NCBI GenBank assembly: GCA_965277405.1
Contig: OZ255726.1
Span: forward strand, 1,088,001 to 1,152,000
From: Gammaproteobacteria bacterium
Lineage (GTDB): Bacteria > Pseudomonadota > Gammaproteobacteria > G965277405
Direction of reading: 5' to 3'
Length of the DNA stretch: 64,000 nucleotides
The notes under the pieces are model-generated. The model saw nothing but the letters and a program-made list of their open reading frames with translations. It was not told where the DNA came from and searched no databases. The translations under genes were made by a program, and so were the position numbers. Numbering within the stretch: position 1 is the stretch's first letter; the number at the start of each line of letters is the position of its first letter. Below are positions 36,272 to 64,000 of this stretch, piece by piece.

Positions 36272-36392
36272 TTCCGTTGCTGAACTGACGAGCGGTTTCA
36301 ATACTAATTTAGCGCAAGTTGTCCTGTTTTGGCGTTTTATGTCTGCTAACCTTTACTGAAATAATGATCTGGTCCTGCTGGGACGCCAACTG

Positions 36393-37460: not shown

Positions 37461-38686
37461 TGCATGTGCTCGTAATCAGCCAGTATTTCTGGCCAGAAGA
37501 TTTTAGAATCAATGACGTGGTTGAGGGTCTGATGAGCCGGGGGCATCAGGTTACCGTGCTCACCGGCCGTCCGAACTATCCGGGCGGCAAACTGTTTCCG
37601 GGTTATGGCTGGTTCAACAAGCGTACCGAGACCTTCAAGGGCGCAAGGGTTGTGCGCGTGCCGATTATCACCCGCGGACAGAATTCAGGGTTCAGGCAGG
37701 CTCTAAACTACATTTCCTTTGCGCTTTCCGCCGCTCTGTTCGGACCATTCCGGTGTTTGGGCAAATACGAAGCCATTCTTGTTTACGAGCCATCACCGGT
37801 TACCGTAGGTATACCCGCCAGGCTCTTGAGGGTACTCAAGCGCCTTCCTATCCTATTCTGGGTTCAGGATCTCTGGCCTGAGAGCCTTGAGGCTACGGGG
37901 GCGGTGAAGTCTCCGCTTATTCTTGGTGCCGTCAGGCGACTGGTGGGCTGGACATATCATGGCTGTACCCGCATCCTCGTACAGTCCGAGGCCTTTGTAG
38001 AATCCATCATGCAGTTCGGCATCTCAGCTGAAAAAATTGGCTATTTGCCCAACAGTGCCGAAGCCTTTTACAGACCAGTGGAAAACGCGGAAGTGCCGGG
38101 TATAGCTTCCTTGCCCGCAGGCTTTCGCGTTATGTTTGCGGGAAATATTGGCGCAGCACAGTCTTTTGAAACAATCCTTTCGGCGGCAGAAACTCTTATA
38201 ATGGAAAAGAACATCCACTGGGTTATTCTCGGCGATGGGCGGCAGGCAAACTGGGTTCGCAAGGAAGTTGCCCGCCGCAAGCTCGACGGCTGCTTTCACT
38301 TGATGGGGCGGTTCCCCGCCTATACCATGCCCGCTTGGTTTGGGCATGCGGACGCCATGTTGGTCACACTCAAACGCAGCCCGATATTCGCAATGACAAT
38401 TCCCTCCAAGGTGCAATCATACCTTGCATGTGCCAAACCGGTTGTCGCTGCCATCGACGGAGAGGGCGCCCGCATTTTGGAGCTTTCCGGTGCCGGGCTT
38501 AGTGCACCGGCGGAAGACGCGTGCGCATTGGCCGATGCTGTTCTTCGGCTTTATAGAATGTCCAAGGAGGAAAGACTGGCAATGGGGCAGAATGGACAGG
38601 CATATTTTGATGCAAATTTTGCACGGGAGCTGCTGCTCGACCGGCTTGAGCACTGGCTTCTGGAATTGGCTAGGATGGAAAAATGA
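37460..38686 (+). CDS. wbuB: WbuB-like GT4 (L-FucNAc/L-QuiNAc transferase type)
   Basis: SQYFWPE, TGRPNYPGG, WVQDLWPES, FAGNIG.AQ, PSKVQSY; GTG start overlapping upstream stop. Confidence 0.8.
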   Translation: MHVLVISQYFWPEDFRINDVVEGLMSRGHQVTVLTGRPNYPGGKLFPGYGWFNKRTETFKGARVVRVPIITRGQNSGFRQALNYISFALSAALFGPFRCLGKYEAILVYEPSPVTVGIPARLLRVLKRLPILFWVQDLWPESLEATGAVKSPLILGAVRRLVGWTYHGCTRILVQSEAFVESIMQFGISAEKIGYLPNSAEAFYRPVENAEVPGIASLPAGFRVMFAGNIGAAQSFETILSAAETLIMEKNIHWVILGDGRQANWVRKEVARRKLDGCFHLMGRFPAYTMPAWFGHADAMLVTLKRSPIFAMTIPSKVQSYLACAKPVVAAIDGEGARILELSGAGLSAPAEDACALADAVLRLYRMSKEERLAMGQNGQAYFDANFARELLLDRLEHWLLELARMEK

Positions 38687-39540
38687 CAAAAATTCTAGTG
38701 CTGGGTTGCAGCGGCATGCTCGGAAATGCCGTAACCCGTGTGATGGCCGAGAGCCGAGATCTTGACGTCTGGTGCACAGCGCGTGCCCGAGGCGTAGAGA
38801 AATTCCTGCCTAAAGAGATTGCCGACAATATCCGCTGCGGTGTAGACGTTCTTAACTCGGACGCCCTAGCAGCGTTGCTCGCCGAAATAAAACCTGATGT
38901 ATTGATAAATTGCGTCGGGCTGGTCAAGCAACTGAGCAATGCCAACGATCCACTTGAGGCGCTGCCCATCAATGCCATCCTGCCCCATCGCCTCGCGCGG
39001 CTCTGCGCACTTGGCGGTGCACGGCTGATTCACCTCAGTACTGATTGCGTCTTCAGTGGCACCAAAGGTAACTATGCAGAAACCGACGACGCCGATGCGC
39101 AAGACCTGTATGGCCGCTCGAAATTTCTCGGTGAGGTCGACTATCCCGATGCCATTACGCTGCGCACATCAATTATCGGGCACGAACTGTCAAGCGCGCA
39201 CGGGCTTGTTGGATGGTTTCTTGCACAGAGCGGTCAGGTGAAGGGTTTTACCAAGGCCGTATTTTCCGGCCTGCCTACGGTTGAGCTGGCGCGAGTCATA
39301 CGCGACGAGGTGCTGCCCAGGCCGAATTTGCACGGTGTTTATCACGTCGCCGCTGCGCCGATCAGCAAATATGACCTGTTGCAACTCGTCAGTTTAGTCT
39401 ACAATAAGCCAATACAAATCATACCCGACGACAAGATCACCATCGACCGTTCGCTGAACGCAGAACGTTTTGAAAAAGCCACAGGATACGTTGCGCCGAC
39501 GTGGCTTGACCTGATCAAACGCATGCATGAATTCCAGTAA
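38683..39540 (+). CDS. RmlD-like NDP-4-keto sugar reductase (QnlA/WbvR type)
   Basis: LGCSGMLG, HLSTDCVFSG, YGRSK. Confidence 0.82.
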   Translation: MTKILVLGCSGMLGNAVTRVMAESRDLDVWCTARARGVEKFLPKEIADNIRCGVDVLNSDALAALLAEIKPDVLINCVGLVKQLSNANDPLEALPINAILPHRLARLCALGGARLIHLSTDCVFSGTKGNYAETDDADAQDLYGRSKFLGEVDYPDAITLRTSIIGHELSSAHGLVGWFLAQSGQVKGFTKAVFSGLPTVELARVIRDEVLPRPNLHGVYHVAAAPISKYDLLQLVSLVYNKPIQIIPDDKITIDRSLNAERFEKATGYVAPTWLDLIKRMHEFQ

Positions 39541-39549
39541 GGTTCCCAG

Positions 39550-40560
39550 ATGTTCTCAGACCGCACATTGATGATTACCGGAGGTACAGGCTCATTCGGC
39601 AACGCCGTAGTGAGCAAGTTTCTTGAAACCGAAATCCGGGAAATACGCATCTTCAGCCGGGATGAGAAGAAGCAGGAGGATATGCGCCTTGCGCTGAACC
39701 ATCCAAAGCTGAAATTCCACATTGGTGATGTTCGCGATTATTCGAGCGTGTTTGATGCCATGCGTGGCGTGGATTTTGTGTTTCACGCCGCAGCGCTGAA
39801 ACAGGTGCCCTCGTGCGAATTTTATCCCATGGAAGCTTTGCGCACCAATGTTCACGGTACGGAAAATGTCATCAATGCCACTATAGCACAGGGTGCTAAA
39901 CGCTTCGTGCTACTGAGCACGGACAAAGCAGTTTACCCCATCAACGCGATGGGCATTTCGAAGGCGATGGCCGAGAAGGTCATGGTCGCGAAATCACGGT
40001 TTCTATCCAATGGTGAAACAGTTCTTTGTGCCACGCGATACGGCAATGTGATGGCTTCCCGTGGGTCGGTCATTCCTCTGTTCGTTGCACAGATCAAGCA
40101 GGGCCTGCCACTGACGATCACCGATCCCGATATGACGAGGTTCCTGATGTCGCTCGATGATTCGGTTGATCTGGTTCTGCACGCGTTTAACAACGCCTCG
40201 CAGGGAGACATTTTCGTCCAGAAAGCACCTGCCTCCACCATCGGTGTACTCGCACAGGCTCTACTAGAGATTTTCGACAGCACTTCGGCACTTGTGGTGA
40301 TCGGTACGCGCCACGGCGAAAAGCTCTATGAATCTCTTTTGTCACGGGAGGAGCTGGTTCGGGCAGACGAGATGGATCGGTATTACAGAGCGCCAATGGA
40401 TGCCCGCGATCTCAACTATAACAAATACTTTGTCGAGGGTGAGCCGAGGCTCTCGGGGTCGGAAGACTATACTTCGCATAACGCGCAGCGGCTGAACCTT
40501 GAGCAGGTCAAGGCGCTCTTGCTGGATCTCGATTACATTCAGGATGCACTTAATGCCTAA
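39550..40560 (+). CDS. fnlA: UDP-GlcNAc 4,6-dehydratase/5-epimerase (FnlA/WbjB/CapE)
   Basis: TGGTGSFG, FSRDEKKQ, HAAALKQVPSCEF, TRYGNVMASRGSVIP, GTRHGEK. Confidence 0.9.
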   Translation: MFSDRTLMITGGTGSFGNAVVSKFLETEIREIRIFSRDEKKQEDMRLALNHPKLKFHIGDVRDYSSVFDAMRGVDFVFHAAALKQVPSCEFYPMEALRTNVHGTENVINATIAQGAKRFVLLSTDKAVYPINAMGISKAMAEKVMVAKSRFLSNGETVLCATRYGNVMASRGSVIPLFVAQIKQGLPLTITDPDMTRFLMSLDDSVDLVLHAFNNASQGDIFVQKAPASTIGVLAQALLEIFDSTSALVVIGTRHGEKLYESLLSREELVRADEMDRYYRAPMDARDLNYNKYFVEGEPRLSGSEDYTSHNAQRLNLEQVKALLLDLDYIQDALNA

Positions 40561-41680
40561 GGTTTTGACCATTGTGGGTACACGCCCTGAGCTGATCAAG
40601 ATGAGCCGGGTGATTGCCGAGCTCGACCGGCAGGTGGATCACGTGCTGGTACATTCTGGGCAGAACTATGACTACGAACTGAATCAAGTATTCTTTGATG
40701 ATTTGAAGATTCGCAAGCCTGACCATTTTCTGAATGTCGCGGCAGAAACTGCCTCGAAGACTATCGCCGATGTTATTGCGAAAACTGATGATATTCTGGC
40801 TCAGGAAAGGCCGGACGCGGTTCTGCTGTACGGTGACACTAATACCTGCCTGGCGGTAATACCAGCGAAGCGGCACAAGATACCGGTATTTCATATGGAA
40901 GCGGGCAACCGCTGCTTTGATCAACGTGTTCCCGAGGAATTGAACCGCAAGGTGGTAGACCATCTCAGCGACATCAATATGGTGCTGACAGAGCATGCGC
41001 GACGCTATCTGATTGCCGAAGGTATCCGGCCAGAGACCATCATCAAGACTGGCTCGCATATGCGGGAAGTGCTCGACTTCTACATGCCGGACATCGATAA
41101 ATCGGATGTGCTCAAGCGTGAAGGGCTGGCTGCAGGAAAATTCTTCGTTGCCAGCATGCACCGCGAAGAAAATGTCGATCCCCTAGATTCGCTGCGCAGC
41201 ATTGTGGCGACCCTCAATATGCTTGCGGGCAGATATGGGTATCCCATTATGATTTCCACACACCCTCGGACCCGCAAGCGGCTGGAGGAAACCGGCCTTC
41301 AATCCAACAATACGCTGCTGCGGTTCATGAAGCCCTTCGGGTTCCTAGACTATGTGAAACTGCAGCTGAACGCCTTGTGCATTCTGTCCGACAGCGGCTC
41401 GATCACGGAGGAGGCATCTATCCTCAATCTTCCAGCAGTGACCCTACGTAACGTGCATGAGCGACCGGAAGGTATGGATGTCGGCACACTGGTCATGTCG
41501 GGGCTTGACACCCAGTCGGTGCTTGACGCTGTCAAACTTGTGATCTCGCAGCATGACAGCAAGAACCGGGTATTCCAGGTTGTCCCAGATTATCTGGCGG
41601 CAGCTGTTTCCAAGCAGGTTGTGAGGCTAGTTCTGAGCTATATTGGTTATGTAAACCGAACCGTGTGGCATGAGCAGTAA
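40553..41680 (+). CDS. UDP-2-acetamido-2,6-dideoxy sugar 2-epimerase (QnlB/FnlC/WbjD type)
   Basis: VGTRPE, GQNYDYEL, HMEAGNRCFD..VPEE.NR, SDSG. Confidence 0.88.
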   Translation: MPKVLTIVGTRPELIKMSRVIAELDRQVDHVLVHSGQNYDYELNQVFFDDLKIRKPDHFLNVAAETASKTIADVIAKTDDILAQERPDAVLLYGDTNTCLAVIPAKRHKIPVFHMEAGNRCFDQRVPEELNRKVVDHLSDINMVLTEHARRYLIAEGIRPETIIKTGSHMREVLDFYMPDIDKSDVLKREGLAAGKFFVASMHREENVDPLDSLRSIVATLNMLAGRYGYPIMISTHPRTRKRLEETGLQSNNTLLRFMKPFGFLDYVKLQLNALCILSDSGSITEEASILNLPAVTLRNVHERPEGMDVGTLVMSGLDTQSVLDAVKLVISQHDSKNRVFQVVPDYLAAAVSKQVVRLVLSYIGYVNRTVWHEQ

Positions 41681-41774
41681 CCGCCCCATGCGCGTGCTTG
41701 TTACCGGAGCCAACGGATTTGTCGGCAAGGCGCTTGCCGACGCGACGGCGAGGTTTTGGTCAGAGCTTCCTTAG
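41670..41774 (+). pseudogene. NAD-dependent epimerase truncated after ~27 codons
   Basis: MRVLVTGANGFVGKAL Rossmann start, then an IS5-like IR and a stop. Confidence 0.8.
41755..41770 (+). mobile_element. Solo IS5/MITE-type right inverted repeat
   Basis: TTTGGTCAGAGCTTCC followed by TTAG; last 11 nt identical to the IS5 IR. Confidence 0.7.
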
Positions 41775-41970
41775 ATCAACGGCGAAAGCTACAGGCTCAA
41801 ACACAGCCGTAAAACCGACTATAACCAGAACAGCTGGACTAACGGCCAGTAGGCGCTTTGGCATGCGTTAGCTATATGGAAAGCACCCACACCAAAGCGT
41901 CGCCTAACCTCAAAACTCAGTGGCTCCTTGTTACGCCGCGATCTGGACCTCTTTTAAGCCAAGATTGACA
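41775..41970 (+). mobile_element. IS21-family right-end remnant (istB 3' end plus IRR)
   Basis: Reads INGESYRLKHSRK (IstB C-terminal GESYR motif); then two TGG-led subterminal repeats ending ...TTGACA. Confidence 0.7.
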
Positions 41971-41992
41971 GCTAGGAACAATACGGTAGAAT
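41965..41992 (+). promoter_or_regulatory. Putative sigma70 promoter for the ABC operon
   Basis: TTGACA-N16-TAGAAT upstream of RBS AGAGGAG and ATG 42024. Confidence 0.6.
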
Positions 41993-42023
41993 CCTGATAA
42001 GCCAATTTAAAAGAGGAGTAAAT

Positions 42024-43046
42024 ATGACTGACTAAAACAAAAACCCGAAGAAACCTGCAAGGCGCGACTTCCTGAAGACCGTAGCGCTAGGATCTGTGGT
42101 GCTGGGTGCCGGAACGTTAGCACCAGAACTCGTGTCAAAAACCGCCAGCGTGGCATATGCCCAAGGTGGTGATAAGTTGAAGATGGCTTTTATCCAGTAT
42201 ATACCGCACACCGTGCCGGCTGCCTGGAGCAAGGGCATTGAAGATGTCCTGAATTCTCAGCCGACGATCGAGTATCAGTTGCTCGACGGTCAGGCTAAAG
42301 CCGAGGTTCAGGCGAGTTTGATGGATTCACTCATTATTAACGGTACCAACGTGATCTTTCTGCAGCCCGTTGATAGCGTGGCTCTGGGTCCGTCAATCGC
42401 TAAGGCGCGGCGCGCGGGAATTCCAGTGATCACACTCAACATTGATGCGCCTGAACTCCATGCTGCGCATGTGGAGATGAGTCACTATCTAGGAGCCAAG
42501 GACATTGCTAAATCGACGGGTGCGGCAATGGGTGGTACTGGTAAGGTGGCAATCCTGAATGCGCCTCCTGGACTGATTATCCGTGATCAGCGTGAAAATG
42601 GCTTTGTCGATGGCATGGTCGAACATCATCCCAGCATACAGATTGTAGCCAATCAGGTTGCCGACTGGTCGCGCAAGAAGGCGCAGGATGTATTCACCAC
42701 GATCCTGGCGGCAAATCCTGATGTGACAGGTGTTTATGGTATCAACGATTCCATGGCCCTTGGTGCCGTAGATGTTGCCAAGCAAAAGGGAATTCTTGAT
42801 AAAATTACCGTCTACGGCAACGATGGTGAGAAAGATGCACTGCAGTCGATTGAAAATGGCGAGCTCACCGGAACACAATATACTGACGTGTATCAGCAAG
42901 GCCGGTATGCAGCAGCCGCTGCCACGGTGCTTGCCAGTGGCGGTGTTTCGGCGCGTGATATCGGTAGACAGGGAGCCCTTTTGATGCCGTACATCATTGC
43001 GACGCTGGATACGGTAGGCCAGATCGGTCCAGCGCAACGCTGGTAG
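42024..43046 (+). pseudogene. Sugar ABC periplasmic binding protein (RbsB-like, Tat signal) with a nonsense codon at codon 4
   Basis: ATG ACT GAC TAA then in frame NKNPKKPARRDFLK continuing into the RbsB-like ORF (ADWSRKKA, GINDSMALGA, GNDG). Confidence 0.8.
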
Positions 43047-43075
43047 GTGTTCAGGTTGTTGTAATGTTACGAACG

Positions 43076-43107
43076 CGGGGCGTGTTTTACCGATAAATCA
43101 CGCCTCG
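43076..43107 (+). terminator. Stem-loop after the binding-protein gene
   Basis: CGGGGCGTG...CACGCCTCG. Confidence 0.45.
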
Positions 43108-43127
43108 GGCTTTGCAGGTTTGGCGCA

Positions 43128-44060
43128 ATGCACTTGATAAACAAAATACCCAACAAGGAACTCCTGTTCCTCTTAGTTGCCGCCGTTGTGATATTTTCGA
43201 TATTTGCAAATCGATTTTTGACGCCCTCGAACTTTGAGAACATTCTTACGGGTTATTCGTTTCTGGCAATTCTTGCCATCGGCCAGGGTCTGACCATCAT
43301 GGTTAGAGGAATTGATCTCAGCATCGGGTCGAACGTTGCTTTGGGGGCGATGGTGCTTTTCGATTTGACGATGATCCTGCAACTTCCAGGATATCAGGCA
43401 ATACCGCTTGCGACCTTGGCTGCCTATCGCGGAGCAGTTTATGCCATTTCGGGGCGGCAACTTTTCCCCGAACTGTCTTCAAAACCCATAACCGACCCAT
43501 GGATTCGTTATCTGGGTGATTTTATCGACCTAGGCGGTCTATTGCGGCTCGACGGTGTTGTGCAACTTCCCTGGATACCAGTTTCCTTTGTTGTGCTTCT
43601 TATCTTTGCCGCTGTCGTCCAGTTTGCGGTGTTTAGCACGCGCTGGGGGCTAAACCTGAGGACACTTGGGGGCAACGCGGAAGCCGCGCATCTTGCCGGT
43701 CTAAACACCAGCCTTCTGGAAATTTCAGCCTATGTTATTTGCGGCCTAGCGGCCGGGCTTGCAGCCGTCATCCTAGTTGGACGCTTCACGACCGCGACGG
43801 AGGCGCTTGGCAGCGGCATGGAACTAACCTCGATTGCTGCGGCCGTGATTGGCGGAACCAGGTTGCACGGTGGTGTAGGCGGGGTGTTCGGCCCGCTAAT
43901 TGGCGCCTTCCTGCTTGGTGTTATTTTGATCGGGTTGACGTTGATGGGCGTTTCGCAATTTATCCAGCAGATTTTGACGGGTACAATACTAATTGCAGCA
44001 GTTTCATATGATCGATTCCTCATTCATCGTTCGAAAAAGCGTGCTGGGGTGACAACATGA
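43128..44060 (+). CDS. Sugar ABC permease (RbsC-like), apparently with an internal in-frame deletion
   Basis: GIDLSIG, GGNAEAAHLAG, ELTSIAAAVIGG; G...G..NG segment missing. Confidence 0.8.
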   Translation: MHLINKIPNKELLFLLVAAVVIFSIFANRFLTPSNFENILTGYSFLAILAIGQGLTIMVRGIDLSIGSNVALGAMVLFDLTMILQLPGYQAIPLATLAAYRGAVYAISGRQLFPELSSKPITDPWIRYLGDFIDLGGLLRLDGVVQLPWIPVSFVVLLIFAAVVQFAVFSTRWGLNLRTLGGNAEAAHLAGLNTSLLEISAYVICGLAAGLAAVILVGRFTTATEALGSGMELTSIAAAVIGGTRLHGGVGGVFGPLIGAFLLGVILIGLTLMGVSQFIQQILTGTILIAAVSYDRFLIHRSKKRAGVTT

Positions 44061-45571
44061 TACCCTTTGCCCTGCAAGCGCTTGCGGTATCGAAGAAATT
44101 TGGCACTTTTGCAGCTCTGCAGCCGCTAGATTTTTCGATTGAGGTGGGGGAGGTGCGCGGACTGGTTGGCAGTAACGGTGCGGGAAAGACCACCTTCATC
44201 AAGGTGCTAACGGGTGCACACCGCCCGACAACTGGCACGATTTTGGTGGACGGGCACGAACTGCCGGACAATTCGACCGCTGCGCATCTGCACGCTGGTA
44301 TCGCATGCATCTATCAGCATTCCAGTCTGGCACCAAATCTGACAGTTCTTGACAACCTGTATTTAGGACGTCATCCATGCGGTATCCTTGGCATAATCAA
44401 TAGACAAAAATTGCGAGCGGATGGCCTTGCGCTTCTTACCGGTCATGGAGTGGATGTTGAGCCCGACGTGCTCGTTGAGACCTTGCCCACGGTCAAACAG
44501 AAACAAATCGAAATCCTCAAGGCCTTGGCACAAAATGCCAAAATAATCCTGATGGACGAACCGACAGCGTGGCTGTCACATGCGGAGGTAAAGCGGCTCC
44601 ACGAAACTATTGCCAGACTGCAAGCGCGCGGCATCGCTATTGTCTATATTTCCCATATGATAAACGAAATTTTTCAGGTCTGTGACAGTGTGTCGGTCCT
44701 GCGCGATGGAACACATGTTTGGACCGGCGCGGTCTCTAGTACGGATCGCCCTGAGTTGATACAGCATATGCTTGGTGAATCAGCTAGCAAACTCACCGGT
44801 CATTCCAGACCTCAGGACAGGGCAAAGCGTAACTCCGGTGCGGTGAAATTGTCCAGCAAGGGGCTTTGCCGTGCCGGGTATTTTTTTGATGTCAACTTCG
44901 ATCTGCATGCTGGTGAAATTTTGTGTGTTACCGGACTGATCGGAGCCAAGCGCACCGAACTTGTGCGTTGTCTATTCGGCGCAGACCGACCGGACAAGGG
45001 AACAATCGAGATCGACGGTGCACCGGTGCAAATCAGTTCACCCAGACAGGCAATGAACCTGGGCATCGGTTTCGTTCCCGAGGATCGTCACCGAGATGGC
45101 CTTTTTTTGACGCATTCAATCCGCGAAAACCTGGTTCTTGCCGCGCTTTCCAAGCTCAGCGATGGGCTGTTGATGAGGAGCCGTGTGTTTCGTGATGTAG
45201 CTGCACGCCAGGTCAAAAAGCTAAACATCGTACCGACCGATCCAGAACGGGTGGTCGGCTGGCTCAGTGGTGGCAACCAGCAGAAAATCCTGCTCGGCAA
45301 ATGGCTTGAAACCAATCCGTCGATCATCATTCTTGATGAGCCGACGGTCGGCGTCGATGTCGGCGCCAAGGCTGAAATCTACGCAATTCTTGATGAATTG
45401 AAGCGCCGTGGCGCGGCTGTTTTGGTTGTTTCGTCGGACATTGAGGAAGTTCAAGCGATTGCCGACAGAATTGCGGTGATGGCGGATGGGTGTCTTGGCA
45501 AGTGCTTTGAGGCATCGAGTGTTACACATGCGGAATTGATAGGCTTGATCAGCGGAAATGCGACCGCATGA
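44057..45571 (+). CDS. Sugar ABC ATP-binding protein (RbsA-like, two NBDs)
   Basis: GSNGAGKT, MDEPT, VPEDR, LSGGNQQK, LDEPT.GVDVGAK. Confidence 0.92.
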   Translation: MIPFALQALAVSKKFGTFAALQPLDFSIEVGEVRGLVGSNGAGKTTFIKVLTGAHRPTTGTILVDGHELPDNSTAAHLHAGIACIYQHSSLAPNLTVLDNLYLGRHPCGILGIINRQKLRADGLALLTGHGVDVEPDVLVETLPTVKQKQIEILKALAQNAKIILMDEPTAWLSHAEVKRLHETIARLQARGIAIVYISHMINEIFQVCDSVSVLRDGTHVWTGAVSSTDRPELIQHMLGESASKLTGHSRPQDRAKRNSGAVKLSSKGLCRAGYFFDVNFDLHAGEILCVTGLIGAKRTELVRCLFGADRPDKGTIEIDGAPVQISSPRQAMNLGIGFVPEDRHRDGLFLTHSIRENLVLAALSKLSDGLLMRSRVFRDVAARQVKKLNIVPTDPERVVGWLSGGNQQKILLGKWLETNPSIIILDEPTVGVDVGAKAEIYAILDELKRRGAAVLVVSSDIEEVQAIADRIAVMADGCLGKCFEASSVTHAELIGLISGNATA

Positions 45572-46497
45572 GCACTTTTGCGGACAAATTTTCCAGCCTT
45601 GCATTGCCTATTGCGGTTGTAGTAACCGCTCTTGTGTTTGGACTGGTTGAGCCAGCCTTTTTGTCGTCGGGAAACCTGACGGGCATCGTGCATCGTATGG
45701 CGACCATTGGCATTATGGCAGTTGGCATGACGTTTGTGATCATGACAGGCGGCATTGACCTTGCGGTCGGTCCTGTTATGGCGCTCGCCGGGCTTGCGTC
45801 GTATTTCTCACTTCAGGTCGGCATTCCCCTGCCATTGTCAATCGTGGTCGGCGTGTTGAGCGGTGCGGTTGTCGGTGCAATCAATGGCACAGCAATAGCG
45901 TTTTTCAGGTTGCCTGCGATAATTGTGACCCTTGGCATGTTGTCGATCGTGCGTGGCGTGGCGCTGACGATCGGCGGACCGACCCTCCACCAGATCAGCG
46001 ACCAACCTGCGTACACATTCATAGGTACAGGGTCGTTTTGCGGCCTTCCGGTTTCGGTGTTGATTTTTGCATTGCTGGCTTTGATTGCAGTGCTGGTCCA
46101 GAAATACACCATCTACGGCCTTCAGATTTCGACCCTTGGTGACAATGAAAGAGCGTCGGAACTGTCCGGTCGCCCCACCCGATTGCTGAAATTGTCAACA
46201 TATGTTGTGTGTGGAGTGACTGCAGCAATTGCGGGTATTATCGAGAGCTCACAAGTTTACACCGCGTCGGCGAACTTTGGTGAGTTTGGCACTGAACTCG
46301 ATGTGATTTCAGCCGTCATACTTGGCGGGGCAAGCATGTTTGGCGGAAAGGAGTATGTATGGAACACAGTGCTGGGTGTCCTATTTCTGGGTGTGATCAA
46401 TAGCGGGCTGAACATTTTGAACATTCCCGTGGATGTTCAGCTAATGGTCAAGGGCGCTATAATTGTTTTGGCGATCAGCGTTTCTTTGCATAAGTAA
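45568..46497 (+). CDS. Sugar ABC permease (RbsC-like)
   Basis: GGIDLAVG, GAINGTAI, IIVTLG, ELDVISAVILGG. Confidence 0.9.
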   Translation: MSTFADKFSSLALPIAVVVTALVFGLVEPAFLSSGNLTGIVHRMATIGIMAVGMTFVIMTGGIDLAVGPVMALAGLASYFSLQVGIPLPLSIVVGVLSGAVVGAINGTAIAFFRLPAIIVTLGMLSIVRGVALTIGGPTLHQISDQPAYTFIGTGSFCGLPVSVLIFALLALIAVLVQKYTIYGLQISTLGDNERASELSGRPTRLLKLSTYVVCGVTAAIAGIIESSQVYTASANFGEFGTELDVISAVILGGASMFGGKEYVWNTVLGVLFLGVINSGLNILNIPVDVQLMVKGAIIVLAISVSLHK

Positions 46498-46739
46498 CGG
46501 GAGGCTAGCATAGTGAGGTCCTGTCGATATAGTGCAGCCCTCAAATGTTCTGGCATTGTGGGTTATGCAACACTCAAATCTTCGAGGTGATACCAATGCA
46601 GAATTCCGACAGTTGTCTGGCTTGGAAAAAGATGCAAGACCATCGCATTAACATATTTTTTCATAGAAAATATCTGCATTCCTCATTACTCAGAAAATCA
46701 TCGTATGCGGAGTATCAGCAGGTCACAATCTTAGTTTTA

Positions 46740-57522: not shown

Positions 57523-58227
57523 ATGCGACTAAACTATAAATTTCAACATGCCGTGCTGCATGGCATAGCTGATAAATTACGTAATGTTCGACTGTTTGCT
57601 ATAATAAGCGCAGGTTTTTTGGGATTGGTTTCAGGTTGTTCATTGCTTGGTCTTGCTGATGGTGCGGAAAATACGACGCCTGCTGACTCGTTGGCTCAAT
57701 TATTAGGTAATCAGCTCGGCCAACAAAAAACCAATCAACGGGTTTCAGCTGCTTCTATATATGGTGAGAAAGGCATTATTTTATATGATCCTTTAGGGAA
57801 TGGTACGGATTTCGTGTTGGACCCATCTGGGCGGATTGTGAAATCTGATTTAGACGCGGCAGAAACAGGATTAGAAATTAACGATTTGGAACGACGTTTT
57901 TTTCGTTCCAACAAGCATCTGATTGATGCCGAAAGTTTATTTTATTCTGGTTTGTACGAAGAAGCACTCAACGAAACAAAAGCATCAATTGAGCTTACTC
58001 CGCGTTCAGCAAAAGCTTATGCAATAAAAGGTTCATTGGAATATAAGCTTGGGCGGCTAGAGCGTGCTAGAGCAGCTTGGATGGTTGCATTAAAGCTTGA
58101 CCCAAAGATGAAAAGCGTGTCACGCGCCCTCTATTTAACTTCTATTCCTGATGCAAATCAAAGAATAGCTGCAACAAGTGGCAGCACGGATAGCGCAGTA
58201 GTAGTTGGTGGGGGCACAGAACAGTAA
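57523..58227 (+). CDS. TPR-repeat lipoprotein
   Basis: Lipobox VSGC; TPR pairs AESLFYSGLYEEAL...LTP / AYAIKGSLEYKLG...ALKLDP. Confidence 0.75.
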   Translation: MRLNYKFQHAVLHGIADKLRNVRLFAIISAGFLGLVSGCSLLGLADGAENTTPADSLAQLLGNQLGQQKTNQRVSAASIYGEKGIILYDPLGNGTDFVLDPSGRIVKSDLDAAETGLEINDLERRFFRSNKHLIDAESLFYSGLYEEALNETKASIELTPRSAKAYAIKGSLEYKLGRLERARAAWMVALKLDPKMKSVSRALYLTSIPDANQRIAATSGSTDSAVVVGGGTEQ

Positions 58228-58332
58228 TAATAATGAAAAATAATATTGCAGAGCATCCGTACATCTTATTCGGAAAGAGTCCGTGAATCTCATGCTTGAT
58301 CAACTCCGTTTTTTATTATGGGCTGTAATATA

Positions 58333-60330
58333 ATGCCTCAAAATATACTGGCAATATTCATTGGCGTAGTGGTAATGCTCTCAGGTCAAGCATGGGCTGT
58401 AATTATTGATGTGGAAAATCCAGCTGTTGACGAGGTGTTTTTTGAAAAAGAAATGGAAAGCAGGCTTTCTCGTGATATTCAAGCATATCTTGGACATGAT
58501 AGGTTTATTTTAGGTATTGATTTTAAGCTTTCTTCGTTTGCAGGCTTCGGGAGGCAAGGTAGCGATGCTGGTGATAGCGATGCTGGTGATAGAGTGGTTG
58601 TTCGTGAAATAACAACGTCATTGCCTGGTTTACCTGGTGCAGAAGTAAAATTTCAAAAAGAATTAACGGGTGAAGATATTAATAATTTGCGGGAAAATCT
58701 GCGCTTAGATGAAAGCTCGCTGGGGTCTAGAAGTCCGCTAAGCTCTGTGCTACAGCCAAGCACACAAAGTGCTAATGCGCTTGCAGGAACTGGAACTGAA
58801 GTGTTTCTTGTGTTAGATACTACGGTGACAACGGCGCAGGAAAACTTTATCCGCGATGTAATGTCTAGAAAGTTGAGTATAGATCTAAACAAAGGTGATA
58901 GTATTCAAATCGTTCGATCTACTTTTGAACGTGAAAGTAATAGTTCAAATACGAGCAATCAACAGCCTAATCAATTTGGAGAAAATCCTGCGCAGCAACC
59001 GCCATTATCTGGAAATCAAGTCCCCGTTGCAGGTGCAGGCGCACCAACTACTGACTCGGGAAATGTAAGTGATTCAGTAACTGATCCAACTTTGTTGCAA
59101 AAAATCAATGAACTTGAACAGGGGTTGAAGAAAGATTTTATTGAGAAAAATTTAGTTTGGATTTTACTCGGTGGCTTTGGTTTTTTATTGTTTTTTAGTC
59201 TGATATTGTTTTTGGCATCACGCAAACCGGCGCAATCAATGATGCCAGCGTATCCGCCGATGGCGCCGCCGCAAAGTCCTAGAACAGGCGCTAGTAATGC
59301 CGAAAAAAATAATGTTGATCAAATTGAGATTGAGGGAATGCGTCATCGTGCGGTAGTGGCAGAAACTAAACGTGAGATTGCAGCGATAGGTTTAGCATCG
59401 CCCAATATTGTAAAACAAGAAATGAACAATCTGTGGGCACAAAACCGCATGGATACGATTGCTGCTGTATATACTGGTCTTGGAAATTCAATTTATGAGT
59501 CATTGTTTGGTGGACTGTCTGCATCTCAATCTTCAGAAATTAGTGCGTATTTATCAGAACGTGAAATCACATCGACACAATTAGAGGCACAAGTTAAAGA
59601 TTTTTATTCTCGATCATTACGTGCTGCGAACGACCCTGATGGTAAGCATAAGTCGCATTCATTTGCATTCTTAAATAAAATGAGAATAGGGTCGCTGCAA
59701 TTCTTGTTAAAAAATGAAAAACCACGGGTCAAAGCCTTGGTTATTTCACAGCTTGAAAATGAAAAGGCAACGACTGTATTAAATAGTTTTGAGGATAAAG
59801 ATCGAAGTAAAGTTGTTCATGAATTAGCTCAATTTGAAGACTTTCCGTATGAGACATTTAATGAAGTTGCGCAATTATTGGTTAGAAAAGCTAAAAAAAT
59901 TCCTGCTGTTAATAATGTTGGGGCAAATGGTATAAATATTTTAATTAATTTATTGGATAATATGGATAGCAGTGATGAAAGTCGCTTAATTGAAGAATTG
60001 CAAAATATGGATCCTGAGTTACACGATAAGCTTAAAACATTGTATTTTACTTTTAATGATCTAAGTAAAGCGCCGCTGCGTGTTATGGGTGAAGCGCTAC
60101 TAGAAGTTGATAAAAGCACTATCGCTATAGCGTTAATGCAAGCATCTGATGTTATTAGAAAACGTGTTTTAAGCAGTATGCCTAAGCGTGTTTCCCAGAC
60201 TATTGAGGTTGAAATAAAAGAAATACAAGACACTATTAAAAACGAACAGATTCAGTCTGCTCGAAAAGTGTTGTTACGCAGTATGCGTGCTTTAGTACGC
60301 AATGGTAAAATTGATATGAGTAAAATCTAA
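58333..60330 (+). CDS. FliF-like ring domain-TM-FliG(M/C) fusion protein
   Basis: Signal peptide (AWA), KGDSIQIVRSTF (FliF C-terminal ring motif), TM at ~59152-59217, EKPR (EHPQ-like), YFTFNDL (MFxF-like), FliG torque helix SMPKRVSQTIEVEI. Confidence 0.8.
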   Translation: MPQNILAIFIGVVVMLSGQAWAVIIDVENPAVDEVFFEKEMESRLSRDIQAYLGHDRFILGIDFKLSSFAGFGRQGSDAGDSDAGDRVVVREITTSLPGLPGAEVKFQKELTGEDINNLRENLRLDESSLGSRSPLSSVLQPSTQSANALAGTGTEVFLVLDTTVTTAQENFIRDVMSRKLSIDLNKGDSIQIVRSTFERESNSSNTSNQQPNQFGENPAQQPPLSGNQVPVAGAGAPTTDSGNVSDSVTDPTLLQKINELEQGLKKDFIEKNLVWILLGGFGFLLFFSLILFLASRKPAQSMMPAYPPMAPPQSPRTGASNAEKNNVDQIEIEGMRHRAVVAETKREIAAIGLASPNIVKQEMNNLWAQNRMDTIAAVYTGLGNSIYESLFGGLSASQSSEISAYLSEREITSTQLEAQVKDFYSRSLRAANDPDGKHKSHSFAFLNKMRIGSLQFLLKNEKPRVKALVISQLENEKATTVLNSFEDKDRSKVVHELAQFEDFPYETFNEVAQLLVRKAKKIPAVNNVGANGINILINLLDNMDSSDESRLIEELQNMDPELHDKLKTLYFTFNDLSKAPLRVMGEALLEVDKSTIAIALMQASDVIRKRVLSSMPKRVSQTIEVEIKEIQDTIKNEQIQSARKVLLRSMRALVRNGKIDMSKI

Positions 60331-60341
60331 GACTATTTTGC

Positions 60342-61133
60342 ATGCCATCCTTCGGAACAATTGGTGGCTTTATAGCAGGGATTGTACTGTTCACAACTGC
60401 TGTTAGCCAAGCCACTGATGATTATATTATATTCCTAAGCGTCCCCAGCGTACTTTTAGTCGTTGGCGGTACGATTTCCGCAACATTTTTAAGTTTTGAG
60501 GTTAGGGATATTTTTAGTGCGTTTTTTGGTATGTTTTTTTTGTTTTTTAAGAAAAATAATGAGAAAGGTTTTAGAAAAGATATAAAGATGCTATTAGATT
60601 TTGCTAAAATACAACGAACAGAAGGAATGCTGCAAATTGAAATGCAACTTACAAGAACGCAACGTAAAGATGTTTTTATTAGCTTTGCTGTTGATTTACT
60701 ATTGAGTAATTATCGTCCGGCTGAGATACGGTCAATGTTAACGGATATGGTATTAGCAAATTTTGATAAAGGTAACCTCAAGGCCTCTGTCATGCGTACA
60801 ATGGGTGCGTATTCGCCTGCTTTTGGAATGATAGGTACGTTAATTGGTCTTATTATTATTCTCAGTGGATTCGGTGGAGATATATCACAACTAGGCGCTG
60901 GGCTTTCACTGGCGCTTATTTCCACCTTATATGGCGTTTTATTAGCCAATTTCACGTATTATCCTGCCGCAGAAAAATTCGCTAGAAATACTGATTTGCA
61001 ACATTTTCGTGAAAAAATTTTATTAGAAGGCTTTGTGTTGATTGCTGCAAGAAAAGGAGCGTTGGCTATACAGGATAAATTAAATAGCTTGTTAACGCCT
61101 GAATTACGCTACAAAATTAACAGTAGTCAATAA
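60342..61133 (+). CDS. motA: MotA/PomA-family stator A subunit
   Basis: PS.L.V.GGT, QRTEGMLQIE, PAFGMIGTLIGL, ALISTLYGVLLAN...P. Confidence 0.9.
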   Translation: MPSFGTIGGFIAGIVLFTTAVSQATDDYIIFLSVPSVLLVVGGTISATFLSFEVRDIFSAFFGMFFLFFKKNNEKGFRKDIKMLLDFAKIQRTEGMLQIEMQLTRTQRKDVFISFAVDLLLSNYRPAEIRSMLTDMVLANFDKGNLKASVMRTMGAYSPAFGMIGTLIGLIIILSGFGGDISQLGAGLSLALISTLYGVLLANFTYYPAAEKFARNTDLQHFREKILLEGFVLIAARKGALAIQDKLNSLLTPELRYKINSSQ

Positions 61134-61136
61134 GTC

Positions 61137-61835
61137 ATGGATGTGTATCCAGAAGGGGGGGTAGCTACAAGACTACAATCAAACAGCAGTGGAAAAGATG
61201 CTAGGAGGAATGAGCCTTGGCTGTTAACGTATTCAGACACGATTACTTTGCTTTTTACTTTTGTGCTGATAATTTTAAAAATTTCTTCTATTGATGTGAA
61301 TAAGGCAGAAGAATTACGTGAAGGTTTATCTCAAACATTTTTAAAAAAAGATATTTCAACTGCATTTCAATCATTTTCAAAAGAAATTGAGCAAGTAACA
61401 AACATTAATCATGATTTACAGGTTGATATCACCAGTAGATACGTGACTATAGAGTTGACAAACTCAAGTATATACGATGTTGGTAGCGCTGATATTGTGA
61501 ATAAAGAGATTAAAACTATACAGTCAGTAGTTGATATTCTAATACAAGACCCATACGCAAGGTATACATTAGAAGTTGAAGGACATACTGATGATGTTCC
61601 AATTAAAAACTTGGAGTTTCAGTCCAATTGGGAACTTTCAACTGCTCGAGCAACAAACATTGTTAGATATTTAGAAGAAAATGGTGTAAGTAGAGAACGG
61701 ATGAAAGCAATTGGATACGCAGATTCTAAACCATTGCCTGAGACCTTGGATATTAATGGCAATATTGTTCCTGAAAAAAGACCGTTAAATCGTAGAATTT
61801 CAATCCGTATTTCACGCTATAAAATTAATGACTAA
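61137..61835 (+). CDS. motB: MotB/PomB-family stator B subunit
   Basis: WLLTYSDTITLL with conserved Asp; OmpA domain EGHTDDVPI, SNWELSTARA, GYADSKP, NRR. Confidence 0.9.
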   Translation: MDVYPEGGVATRLQSNSSGKDARRNEPWLLTYSDTITLLFTFVLIILKISSIDVNKAEELREGLSQTFLKKDISTAFQSFSKEIEQVTNINHDLQVDITSRYVTIELTNSSIYDVGSADIVNKEIKTIQSVVDILIQDPYARYTLEVEGHTDDVPIKNLEFQSNWELSTARATNIVRYLEENGVSRERMKAIGYADSKPLPETLDINGNIVPEKRPLNRRISIRISRYKIND

Positions 61836-62784
61836 AAGAGTTCATCATCAACAAATACAATCACTACTAAACGCTTTACAAAATAATATTGTTGGACAAA
61901 AAAAACTATTAGAAAGATTGATCATTGGATTATTATCTGATGGACATATATTAGTTGAAGGCGCGCCAGGGTTAGCAAAATCGCTAACTGTTGCAACATT
62001 AGCAAAGCTTATAAACTGTGATTTTCAGCGTATTCAATTTACTCCAGATTTACTCCCCAGCGATATTACAGGGAGTGAAATCTACAAGCCGCAAACTCAA
62101 GCATTTAGCTACCAAAAAGGGCCAATATTTAGTAATTTAGTGTTAGCTGATGAAATTAATAGAGCACCAGCAAAGGTTCAATCAGCCCTGCTTGAAGCAA
62201 TGTCTGAACGCCAAGTAACCATCGGCAATACAACGTATACGTTACCAGCTTTATTTCAGGTCATGGCAACTCAAAATCCCATTGAACACGAAGGTACGTT
62301 CCAACTGCCAGAAGCACAGCTTGATAGGTTTATTATGTATGTGGCAATTGATTATCCTTCTATAGATGAAGAGTTAATGATTATGCGACTTAATCAAAAA
62401 AAGGCGGTTGAGATCACACCAGTTATTGACATTACAACTATTTTGCAAGCACGTGAGGAAGTCCGTGAGATGTATATTCACGAAAGATTATTAATGTATA
62501 TTGCAGAAGTTGTCCATGCTACGCGTACCCAAAAAAACAGAACAAGTGGCAATCAAGGCTATATAGAAATAGGTGCAGGACCAAGAGCAAGTATTGCGTT
62601 AGCAACACTGTCACGTTCTCTTGCATATCTAAGAGGTCAAGACGAGGTCACTCCAGATATTATCCAAGAGCTGTGTTATGACGTGCTCGCCCATCGAATC
62701 ATTTTAAATTTTAGCTCAGAAAACACAGTTCAACAAAAATACCAAATAATTGACGAGGTACTGAGTAGCGTGAAAATTGTATAG
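61828..62784 (+). CDS. moxR: MoxR-family AAA+ ATPase
   Basis: GAPGLAKS, RIQFTPDLLPSD, LADEINRAPAKVQSALLEAM, ATQNPIE.EGT..LPEAQLDRF. Confidence 0.95.
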   Translation: MTKRVHHQQIQSLLNALQNNIVGQKKLLERLIIGLLSDGHILVEGAPGLAKSLTVATLAKLINCDFQRIQFTPDLLPSDITGSEIYKPQTQAFSYQKGPIFSNLVLADEINRAPAKVQSALLEAMSERQVTIGNTTYTLPALFQVMATQNPIEHEGTFQLPEAQLDRFIMYVAIDYPSIDEELMIMRLNQKKAVEITPVIDITTILQAREEVREMYIHERLLMYIAEVVHATRTQKNRTSGNQGYIEIGAGPRASIALATLSRSLAYLRGQDEVTPDIIQELCYDVLAHRIILNFSSENTVQQKYQIIDEVLSSVKIV

Positions 62785-63582
62785 ATGTTTCAAGTTTTAG
62801 AAAAGCTGTCAACAGGGTGGTTAATAAATTCCGAATATATCCAAGCAGCGTATGCGTATCAGCGCAAGGTCAGTAAAAGTAGGCTACATCATACTTATGG
62901 TGCCAGCAGATTAACAAAAAAAGGAAAAGGTTCTGATTTTGATCATTTAAGGGAGTTCACTAGCAGTGATGATATTCGACATATTGCATGGAAAGCTTCG
63001 TTACGATCACAAAAAACATATACAAAAGTATTTTCTGATGAGATTGAAGATAAGATAAAAATTTATGTGATGTTGAATGCCGAGTTGTCATTTGCTATAA
63101 AAAAAAGATCTGCAGCATTTGCTTTATATATAGCACTCCACAGCGCTGTAGAAACATGTTATAAAAAAAATATGCAATGTGAAATTTTGCTTATTCATGG
63201 CAACAATGTCATCGAGAGAGCCAAAATACGTATGCAGAAAGAAATTATCAGAACACTTAGTAGCCTTGCTAAGAAAATCAACGCTGCAATGTGTAAGTAT
63301 AAAACTGGTGATTTATTTAAAATGGATGATATAAAGATTACTCCGCATTCAATTGTTCTTACAGGTGCGCGTAATATACAGCATTACGGATTAGATAGCA
63401 GCACCCTACTGGGCAGCACACTACTGGTAGTAGATGAAGAACCATTGCAACGAATAAGAATTATTGCCCAAACAAATTCTGGTGTGAAACAGGTTAATGT
63501 CGGCGCAAATGCCATAGACTGCGCCATCGTTGCAGATGACACTGTCGAAGATATCTATGCAAAAGTGCAAAGCTGTATATGA
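62785..63582 (+). CDS. DUF58-family protein (divergent)
   Basis: G.GSDFDHLREF..SDDIRHIAWKAS; follows moxR. Confidence 0.82.
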   Translation: MFQVLEKLSTGWLINSEYIQAAYAYQRKVSKSRLHHTYGASRLTKKGKGSDFDHLREFTSSDDIRHIAWKASLRSQKTYTKVFSDEIEDKIKIYVMLNAELSFAIKKRSAAFALYIALHSAVETCYKKNMQCEILLIHGNNVIERAKIRMQKEIIRTLSSLAKKINAAMCKYKTGDLFKMDDIKITPHSIVLTGARNIQHYGLDSSTLLGSTLLVVDEEPLQRIRIIAQTNSGVKQVNVGANAIDCAIVADDTVEDIYAKVQSCI

Positions 63583-63992
63583 AAGATGTTCATCAACCAT
63601 ATAATTTATATCTTTATTTAAATATTACTTGGATTGCTATTGCAATTGTTTTCATGGTATTTCTTATAATAAGTTATATATATTTACAACGATATCTAGC
63701 AAATAGAAAAATACAGCAAACTATACGTAGGTTGCAAGATATAGAGAGCGATGAGGTTTTTGCATTAAACATTGTGCAAGCCATCAAGCATTCAATGGAT
63801 GAACATGGGATACAAAGCAATATGCTCCATGGCGAACGCTTGTATAAAACCTTGCTTAAACATTACAAATACAAGGCAACCATCACATTAAGAGACTTTT
63901 TAATATCAACATACAAAGAACAAAAAATGATTCAGAGACATTTAGTTCTAAAAGAAATTGAGTTACTAATAAAAAGCAATGTTAGCAATTGA
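63579..63992 (+). CDS. Small single-TM protein (DUF4381-like slot of MoxR/Bat operons)
   Basis: MKDVHQP start, one TM, LHGE motif; position after DUF58. Confidence 0.55.
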   Translation: MKDVHQPYNLYLYLNITWIAIAIVFMVFLIISYIYLQRYLANRKIQQTIRRLQDIESDEVFALNIVQAIKHSMDEHGIQSNMLHGERLYKTLLKHYKYKATITLRDFLISTYKEQKMIQRHLVLKEIELLIKSNVSN

Positions 63993-64000
63993 TTGGCCGC

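Follow-up and report, generated by a model that had tools for sequence, protein, structure and literature searches.

In the window analyzed here, a stretch of 64,000 nucleotides from a Gammaproteobacteria bacterium (NCBI GenBank assembly GCA_965277405.1, contig OZ255726.1, positions 1,088,001 to 1,152,000 of the forward strand), four consecutive genes encode a tetratricopeptide repeat (TPR) lipoprotein, a fusion of the C-terminal half of the MS-ring protein FliF with the rotor protein FliG, and the stator proteins MotA and MotB. An earlier note on this DNA had interpreted them as a rotor-stator machine with a non-flagellar output. Our analysis supports that interpretation, in which rotation, the ring, the ion, and the output are what we infer. 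The module, composed of the third ring-building motif (RBM3) of FliF joined to FliG and accompanied by MotAB, is very probably real, conserved, and independent of flagella. Its operation as a rotating ring is less certain, but we consider it fairly probable. A role in envelope remodeling or in driving a surface structure is favored over swimming.

Absence of a flagellum from the genome

The source genome is closed, consisting of a single contig of 2,174,577 bp that is 98.3% complete. Its six-frame translation was searched in full with Pfam families, using four flagellated genomes as positive controls, and every family searched gave matches in all four of them. In the whole genome there were no matches to FHIPEP (FlhA, the type III export gate), YscJ_FliF (PF01514), Flagellin_N, Flg_bb_rod, FliM, or FliMN_C, and the single match to FliG_C was the fusion gene of the operon. 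The statement that no other flagellar genes occur in the 64 kb therefore extends to the whole genome, with six families at zero. Since these families gave no match genome-wide and the controls were positive, the operon cannot be the missing motor of a flagellar system encoded elsewhere without its own fliF, fliG, and motAB; no such system exists in this genome, and genes for an export gate, rod, hook, filament, or switch are all missing from it. The MotA_ExbB family had six matches, among which the MotA of the operon alone resembles MotA, the five others being different members of the family. A tblastn search with this MotA revealed no paralog in the genome at an E value below 1e-4.

The cytoplasmic part of the fusion protein

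Both FliG domains identified in the fusion protein scored well above their Pfam gathering thresholds (FliG_M, PF14841, 51.2 bits versus 25; FliG_C, PF01706, 70.2 bits versus 23.3), and the same thresholds were exceeded for FliG_M in 75/75 and for FliG_C in 74/75 of its relatives. When the PDB was searched with phmmer, residues 458 to 667 aligned to residues 119 to 327 of Aquifex FliG (E = 2.7e-21), and ten further FliG chains were matched. Foldseek searches with a first AlphaFold2 (AF2) model of the protein gave 13 matches at E ≤ 1e-3, all of them to FliG and spanning 208 to 320 aligned columns. The full-length FliG chains, of 310 to 331 residues, were aligned over 309 to 320 columns, and therefore a FliG_N-like region is present too. 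The possibility of a misannotated MgtE N-domain protein was rejected, since MgtE_N scored 19 bits, under its cutoff, against 70 bits for FliG_C.

The residues involved in torque generation are largely recognizable. R624 and E632, together with E630, align to the KR...DE residues of Thermotoga FliG, and the basic residue and the acidic pair of this helix are kept in the other 18 of the 19 cassettes compared. A different picture emerges at the FliM-binding EHPQ motif of FliG. It is EHPQ in Aquifex FliG, EKPR in the window protein, and HED(A/P/V)R, HEE(A/P)R, or SEKAR in the relatives. This alteration agrees with the missing FliM/FliN switch, and the description of the machine as switchless fits both the motif and the zero matches to FliM and FliN.

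Short proteins related to FliG_C were seen in other genomes. In genomes of families f254 and f274 (e.g., G505:C141:6455-6757), open reading frames (ORFs) of 144 to 183 amino acids cover the FliG_C profile nearly in full (E = 1e-23 to 1e-32). They coexist with a normal FliG in the same genomes and look like stand-alone FliG_C-domain proteins.

The periplasmic and membrane part of the fusion protein

The first AF2 model, built for the whole protein from 12 sequences, had a pLDDT below 50 over the periplasmic part and gave weak matches to FliF (E = 0.03 to 0.3). It was replaced for this part by a domain-only model (residues 28 to 285) based on a 150-row alignment, the core of which reached a pLDDT above 90. 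The modeled fold starts with α1-β1, continues with an inserted β-hairpin and helix, and ends with β2-α2-β3 carrying a G193-D194 motif. The sequence LPGLP (residues 102 to 106) lies at the tip of the β-hairpin in the model. Three residues of this tip (L102, P103, and G104), together with G193 and D194, are nearly invariant both in 75 and in 150 relatives.

Three comparisons assign this domain to FliF. With Foldseek, the top 18 matches of the domain model were all FliF MS-ring chains (E = 7e-5 to 7.6e-4), mostly to the RBM3/S-ring part, with SpoIIIAG and PrgK ranking after them. VIA, which does not depend on Foldseek, gave FliF Z scores of 11.7 (root mean square deviation of 3.8 over 97 residues), 11.2 (Salmonella residues 228 to 438), and 10.6, followed by PrgK and SpoIIIAG at 8.4 and SpoIIIAH at 7.7. 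The hhalign comparison of the 150-row family profile with four canonical FliFs resulted in a probability of 97.4% (E = 1.1e-11, 246 columns). The matched FliF columns, 271 to 578, comprise RBM3, the collar, a common RGD turn, the second transmembrane (TM) helix, TM2, and the C-terminal FliG-binding tail. Among 75 family members, 20 are matched by Pfam YscJ_FliF_C (PF08345), the best with E = 7.2e-8, and the Bermanella fusion ORF scores above the cutoff of this family. RBM1 and RBM2 (PF01514, YscJ_FliF) had no Pfam match in the fusion protein, and the hhalign match begins only at FliF column 271. Hence, the name FliF-FliG fusion given in the earlier note is right in that structure and sequence searches (Foldseek, VIA, phmmer, and hhalign) recovered both folds, but the FliF part has to be narrowed to the half running from RBM3 to the C terminus, RBM1 and RBM2 being absent.

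The fusion is probably one bitopic inner-membrane protein, with the RBM3/β-collar domain outside and the FliF tail and FliG (M, C, and N-like) inside. Between the folded periplasmic core and the membrane lies a low-complexity linker (residues about 205 to 256). The relatives have a single TM segment at the matching place, and most of those listed start with a similar hydrophobic N-terminal segment. Judging from its sequence, the N terminus resembles a cleavable signal peptide more than it does the first TM helix of FliF.

The stator proteins and the TPR lipoprotein

The stator is of the flagellar type. All ten PDB matches of MotA were flagellar MotA/PomA chains, with E values of about 1e-24 to 1e-25 for nine of them and of 3.7e-07 for the tenth. 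The nearest NCBIfam families were MotP, PomA, and MotA (E = 1e-37 to 1e-32), ExbB reaching only 1.2e-4. For MotB they were MotD, MotB, and MotS, the E values of the stator genes overall ranging from 1e-37 to 1e-26. The alignment of MotB with PomB and with the MotB of Clostridium and Bacillus takes in the TM aspartate; the protein shows a plug (residues 21 to 68), the channel Asp34, and an OmpA-like peptidoglycan-binding domain. MotA carries R92 and E100, eight residues apart, in an aligned RxEGxLxxE cytoplasmic stretch, and a proline in each of TM3 and TM4. Across the 19 cassettes, the MotA arginine is conserved in 18/19, and the MotA glutamate, both prolines, and the MotB aspartate in 19/19. 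In Escherichia coli, the contact pairs given in the consulted part of PMC12505986 are MotA R90 with FliG D288-D289 and MotA E98 with FliG R281. With the contact charges, the channel aspartate, and the prolines all kept, the stator looks able to drive the FliG of the fusion.

The TPR protein has a lipobox cysteine, Cys39, that is invariant in 18/18 aligned homologs, and the serine at position +2 presumably directs it to the outer membrane. Its gene immediately precedes the fusion gene in 17/18 genome loci and in L035, a metagenome locus described below. When the RBM domain and the mature TPR protein were predicted together as a two-chain complex, the score was 0.51 (runs of 0.51, 0.57, and 0.00), while the best of three controls scored 0.01. 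In the benchmark, the mark was reached by 58/80 solved complexes and 2/110 mismatched pairs, counts that hold only roughly here given the custom alignments used in the prediction; scores of 0.60 or less comprised just 7 of the 80 solved complexes and both passing mismatches. Contact agreement in the runs was at least 4%, with a partner pLDDT of at least 52.

Distribution of the module in other genomes

A pattern scan that covered one genome per species identified 18 loci in records of Bermanella, Oceaniserpentilla, Thalassolituus, and Saccharospirillaceae and in one metagenome-assembled genome labeled Crocinitomicaceae. The order TPR-fusion-MotA-MotB was found in 17 of the 18 loci, the remaining one being cut by a contig end. 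Just upstream of the TPR gene, 16 of the 18 loci encode a barrel-like protein of 377 amino acids (e.g., L014:8196-9329), and the remaining two are truncated by contig ends. This protein is 67 to 77% identical among loci, ends in an aromatic residue as in an outer-membrane barrel, and has a weak match to FlgO (E = 1.2e-3). No credible match to it was found in the genome of the window or in L035 (E of 0.02 or worse).

Of 401 genomes sampled evenly from the class, six contained a long fusion ORF, the window genome being one of them. Four of the other five carriers (93 to 99% complete) had no match to FHIPEP or to flagellin, and one had both. Their gene contexts vary: we found the orders MotA-MotB-barrel-TPR-fusion, barrel-ORF-fusion-MotA-MotB, and ORF-TPR-fusion-MotA-MotB, and, in G375 (L046, G375:C3:1-16000), TPR-ORF-fusion-Sel1 protein. 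In the latter cassette, an ORF of 430 amino acids with no assigned family separates the TPR and fusion genes, and a Sel1-repeat protein of 498 amino acids follows the fusion. Homologs of the 377-amino-acid barrel-like protein are part of the cassettes of G070 and G301. Among the flagellated Bermanella-type carriers, all three of those tested also have an ordinary FliG of 353 to 354 amino acids (E of about 1e-42) and a normal FliF. The coexistence with an ordinary FliG in these 3/3 genomes and the presence of the fusion in the four further genomes lacking FlhA and flagellin matches are in line with a module independent of flagella.

The family extends well beyond these genomes. A profile search of 1.84 billion representatives revealed 111 proteins at E ≤ 1e-30. 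The best 150 matches are mostly 550 to 720 amino acids long, with a hydrophobic N terminus, a periplasmic domain of about 170 to 250 amino acids, one TM segment, and a FliG part. This layout of signal peptide, periplasmic domain, single TM segment, and FliG is common to over 100 representatives (at 50% identity), and the names given to family members in their sources are "hypothetical protein" or "FliG." Look-alikes in the ESM Atlas fall in clusters of Balneolota, Bdellovibrionota, Bacteroidota, and Elusimicrobiota, which we regard as leads only. The window genome itself stands alone at the order and family levels among the species representatives compared; the nearest 40 genomes compared are all related to it at the class level only, and 0/40 carry the fusion gene.

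The operon and its downstream genes

The features of the operon are listed in Table 1. The four co-directional genes described in the earlier note were recovered as ORFs at exactly those positions, with intergenic gaps of 90, 11, and 3 bp, and they are indeed AT rich (37.9% GC against 44.8% for the genome). The description of the operon as minimal and self-contained was not entirely accurate. It continues past position 61835 with five more genes, encoding MoxR, DUF58, DUF4381, VWA, and pilin proteins, and relatives encode in addition the outer-membrane barrel. The start of moxR overlaps motB by 8 bp, and the genes of the block overlap or abut; an FtsH gene follows the pilin gene, separated by a gap. 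All nine block ORFs are intact, and the nine genes are single copy in the genome at E < 1e-4, except for one weak second VWA match. A scan of the operon for promoters and terminators gave fewer sites than shuffled sequences and no clear boundaries.

TABLE 1 Features of the rotor-stator operon and the genes that follow it (window coordinates)
Feature	Position	Strand	Length, evidence, and remarks
TPR lipoprotein gene	57523..58227	+	234 aa; Pfam TPR_2 and TPR_11; TPR repeats about 130-200
FliF(RBM3 to C terminus)-FliG fusion gene	58318..60330	+	670 aa
N-terminal hydrophobic segment ending A-W-A	58318..58398	+	Read by eye as Sec signal peptide
Periplasmic ring-building motif, FliF RBM3/β-collar-like	58399..58932	+	AF2 model, Foldseek, VIA, hhalign
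Single TM helix, about residues 283-305	59164..59232	+	Hydrophobic run; helix 257-300 in first model
Cytoplasmic helices 331-437, FliF C-terminal-tail-like stretch, then FliG_N-like domain	59308..59628	+	pLDDT 68-87
FliG middle domain (residues 460-529)	59695..59904	+	Pfam FliG_M, 1.5e-13
FliG C-terminal domain (residues 559-666), charged torque helix R624, E630, E632	59992..60315	+	Pfam FliG_C, 2e-19
MotA/PomA-type stator A gene	60342..61133	+	263 aa; Pfam MotA_ExbB, 67.7 bits
MotB-type stator B gene	61137..61835	+	232 aa; MotB_plug, 42.5 bits; OmpA, 57.2 bits
MoxR-type AAA+ ATPase	61828..62784	+	AAA_3, 5.8e-63 (211 bits); AAA_lid_2
DUF58 protein	62785..63582	+	Pfam DUF58, 23.5 bits (cutoff 23.4)
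DUF4381 membrane protein	63579..63992	+	Pfam, 26.2 bits, just below cutoff of 27.2
BatA-like VWA protein, start	63979..64000	+	308 aa, continues past window end; VWA, 65.5 bits (L002:7980-8906)
Type IVa pilin gene	64886-65371 (L002:8887-9372), past window end		Directly after VWA gene

One metagenome relative, L035 (about 50% identity; block at L035:8370-16300), carries all nine genes in the same order, TPR-fusion-MotA-MotB-MoxR-DUF58-DUF4381-VWA-pilin, amid different flanking genes. The metagenome scan gave this one locus, and it is the sole close relative whose genomic context was compared. Its counterparts of DUF58 and DUF4381 score 60.9 and 30.7 bits with Pfam. A classic G|FSLIEL leader and a C-terminal pair of cysteines characterize the pilin, which occupies the same place in L035 (48% identity). 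No other pilin was found in the genome with it as a tblastn query, and two T2SSE ATPases are encoded elsewhere. The MoxR/DUF58/DUF4381/VWA set is most likely an assembly or remodeling chaperone for an envelope complex, a reading that draws on general knowledge of the MoxR family and on the two loci described here. MoxR as a general partner of the cassette was rejected, since it adjoins neither the 18 loci, nor the five class carriers, nor the separate MotAB locus of one of these carriers, G129.

The GC content of the nine-gene block is 37.3%, within the lowest 2.4% of genome windows of equal size. The block of L035 has the same GC content as its flanks (56%), while that of the window is about 7 points below its genome, which suggests that the nine-gene block was transferred into this host from an AT-richer donor.

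Proposed mechanism and alternatives

In the mechanism that we propose, the RBM3-like domain would mediate oligomerization of the fusion into a ring resembling the S-ring, beneath which FliG would form a ring as well. Ring building by this domain is suggested by its solved relatives FliF, SpoIIIAG, and PrgK, all of which build rings. MotA5B2 units anchored to peptidoglycan would turn the ring by ion flow and, because there is no FliM/FliN switch, presumably in one direction only. The conserved hairpin tipped by LPGLP may project into the periplasm and engage the TPR lipoprotein tethered to the outer membrane, so that torque would be passed to an envelope partner instead of a rod. In this lineage, where the barrel partner appears to be absent, the module would be cotranscribed with the MoxR/DUF58/DUF4381/VWA set and the type IV pilin. 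Taken in all its parts, the picture would be that of a free-standing, switchless rotary envelope motor forming an old lineage that is sister to the flagellar motor, and not a recent cut-down copy of it, with a periplasmic or outer-membrane partner as its output (the TPR lipoprotein and, in this clade, perhaps a pilin-containing structure assembled by MoxR/VWA). In this complete form we find it rather improbable.

Several observations weigh against the proposed motor. In the fusion protein, the score for the NCBIfam FliG equivalog TIGR00207 (86.8 bits) stays below the cutoff of 226.7, one of the two acidic positions of the torque helix is occupied by valine, and Pfam YscJ_FliF_C gives no match at E = 0.01. 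Likewise, the stator proteins do not reach the equivalog cutoffs of NCBIfam (MotP, PomA, MotA, MotB, and MotD), with best scores of 128.6 bits versus 394 for the MotA type and 147.4 versus 283 for the MotB type. The predicted contact between the TPR lipoprotein and the fusion is weakly supported. Moreover, the stator is not always linked to the fusion, since in G129 the TPR and fusion genes stand alone with MotAB about 657 kb away and in G375 no MotA was found with the window MotA as the query. The linkage with MoxR was seen in only two loci, the window and L035, and is lacking in the 18 Bermanella-type loci and the five class carriers. Finally, the low GC content may mean that the block was transferred recently.

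The same parts could work without a closed ring, as a linear transducer of the Ton/Tol type in which MotA5B2 pulls or twists one or a few copies of the fusion and thereby energizes the TPR lipoprotein or an outer-membrane partner, like ExbBD-TonB or TolQR-TolA-Pal. The layout is indeed reminiscent of Tol-Pal, combining a 5:2 motor with an outer-membrane TPR lipoprotein and a bitopic inner-membrane protein whose periplasmic linker is long and of low complexity, and the five other MotA_ExbB-family genes show that such systems are common in this genome. We nevertheless judge it rather unlikely, as the periplasmic domain specifically resembles RBM3 of FliF, its closest solved relatives (FliF, SpoIIIAG, PrgK, and SpoIIIAH) being ring builders without exception; as the stator, with its plug and FliG-contact charges, is flagellar in type and matches ExbB at only 1.2e-4; and as the partner on the cytoplasmic side has the M, C, and N-like regions of a FliG, which forms a ring in solved motors.

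The downstream genes raise another alternative, a basal platform of a lineage-specific surface structure in which the motor drives or anchors a type IV pilin fiber and MoxR, DUF58, and VWA act as assembly factors. The conservation of the nine-gene order in L035 at about 50% identity amid different flanks, the overlapping or abutting genes, the pilin leader, and the single-copy state of the nine genes, with one weak second VWA match, all speak for it. It is highly unlikely all the same: the link is seen in two loci only, the 18 Bermanella-type loci and the five class carriers having no adjoining MoxR or pilin; the block contains no gene for a pilus platform, secretin, or prepilin peptidase; and the pilin may simply be the PilA of the cell, for which the two T2SSE ATPases encoded elsewhere would work. 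The block could instead be left over from a lost flagellum and in decay, or have arrived recently by transfer and have no function in its host. The absence of all other flagellar genes and the outlying GC content (37.3% versus 44.8%) would fit this idea, but we regard it as barely credible. The nine ORFs are intact with their functional residues kept, and the fusion layout is that of a distinct and widespread family, not of a broken fliF-fliG pair. In flagellated carriers the fusion stands beside a true fliF and fliG, not in their place, and its FliG is not nested among the 33 canonical FliGs sampled in a tree.

Comparison with known systems and evolution

To our knowledge, FliG and the MS ring have been described from the flagellum alone, apart from an odd chlamydial remnant. 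With the flagellar motor's core the module shares a homologous RBM3/β-collar, TM2, and FliF C-terminal tail, a FliG with M and C domains and a charged torque helix, and a MotA/MotB pair with the plug, the channel aspartate, the prolines, and the R...E pair. It differs in that FliF and FliG form one polypeptide with a signal-peptide-like N terminus and without RBM1 and RBM2, in the altered EHPQ motif, and in its partners, a TPR lipoprotein and MoxR/VWA genes; the export gate, rod, filament, and switch families have no match in the genome.

In the Chlamydiaceae, bacteria without flagella, a shortened FliF is likewise naturally fused to FliG sequence (PMC4768692). According to the consulted part of its description, the chlamydial protein is about 330 amino acids long and keeps two TM helices along with RBM2 and one other RBM (Bergeron 2016, PeerJ, PMC4768692); it is encoded among injectisome genes, has no SpoIIIAG-like (RBM3) domain, and retains of FliG only an M-like region (PMC4768692). 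By contrast, the window protein keeps RBM3 and the FliG M and C domains, has no match to RBM2 or PF01514, and is accompanied by its own MotAB. Engineered FliF-FliG fusions of Salmonella and Vibrio resemble it in their covalent 1:1 joining of the two proteins (PMC11481574; bioRxiv 10.1101/2023.02.06.527414), although they are laboratory constructs of full-length FliF in a complete flagellum. Such fusions appeared among our structure and sequence matches (PDB 8z4d/8z4g; 8z4d among the PDB sequence matches). Since the engineered Vibrio fusions still form S-rings, as far as the consulted text of PMC11481574 reports, the fused layout is compatible with ring assembly.

Other 5:2 motors likewise combine a pentamer of the MotA/ExbB family with a dimer of the MotB/ExbD type and put ion flow in the envelope to non-flagellar use. 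Examples named in the consulted part of PMC12505986 are ExbBD-TonB, TolQR-TolA-Pal, AglRQS, GldLM, and ZorAB. Unlike these other 5:2 motors, the window stator groups by sequence with flagellar stators. We know of no FliG or RBM ring as a partner of ExbBD, TolQR, AglRQS, GldLM, or ZorAB. The downstream genes match the MoxR-DUF58-VWA ("Bat"-type) operons in having an AAA_3 MoxR, DUF58, DUF4381, and a BatA-like VWA in that order, but the block has one VWA gene and no genes of the BatB/BatD type and is joined to a rotor-stator cassette. In a full-text literature search, with supplementary tables outside its scope, we found no description of the FliF(RBM3)-FliG family, and no paper on a link between MoxR/VWA and rotor-stator operons was found by full-text search either. 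The consulted parts of a survey of MotAB (PMC12505986) and of one of flagellar genes (PMC13277936) do not mention such a module.

For the M and C domains of FliG, a maximum-likelihood tree was built from 54 fusion proteins and 33 canonical FliGs, all of one phylum and with hand-chosen rows. In this unrooted tree, the fusion proteins and the canonical FliGs lie on two sides of one branch with an SH-aLRT support of 51%. The fusion FliGs are thus not nested in the canonical FliGs sampled, and "sister" and "old derivative" both fit. If the module works, the torque-generating core can be an independent machine, which bears on the origin of the flagellar motor and on whether the rotor-stator arose before or after the secretion system; if the sister reading is true, it would be a living rotor-stator core without a type III export apparatus. 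With two to four proteins, it also offers a simpler system for the study of torque. New here are the closed aflagellate genome, the profile evidence that the fusion extends from RBM3 through TM2 and the FliG-binding tail, and the lineage-specific operon link with MoxR/VWA.

Other features of the window

An Rfam scan of the window revealed two transfer RNAs (tRNAs) only, neither of them in the operon. At positions 36000 to 46500, about 10 kb have a GC content of 52 to 54% in a genome of 45%. This region encodes two GT4 glycosyltransferases, an RmlD-like protein, a Polysacc_synt_2 protein, and a UDP-GlcNAc 2-epimerase, followed by a sugar-type ABC transporter, and is probably an acquired surface-polysaccharide island.

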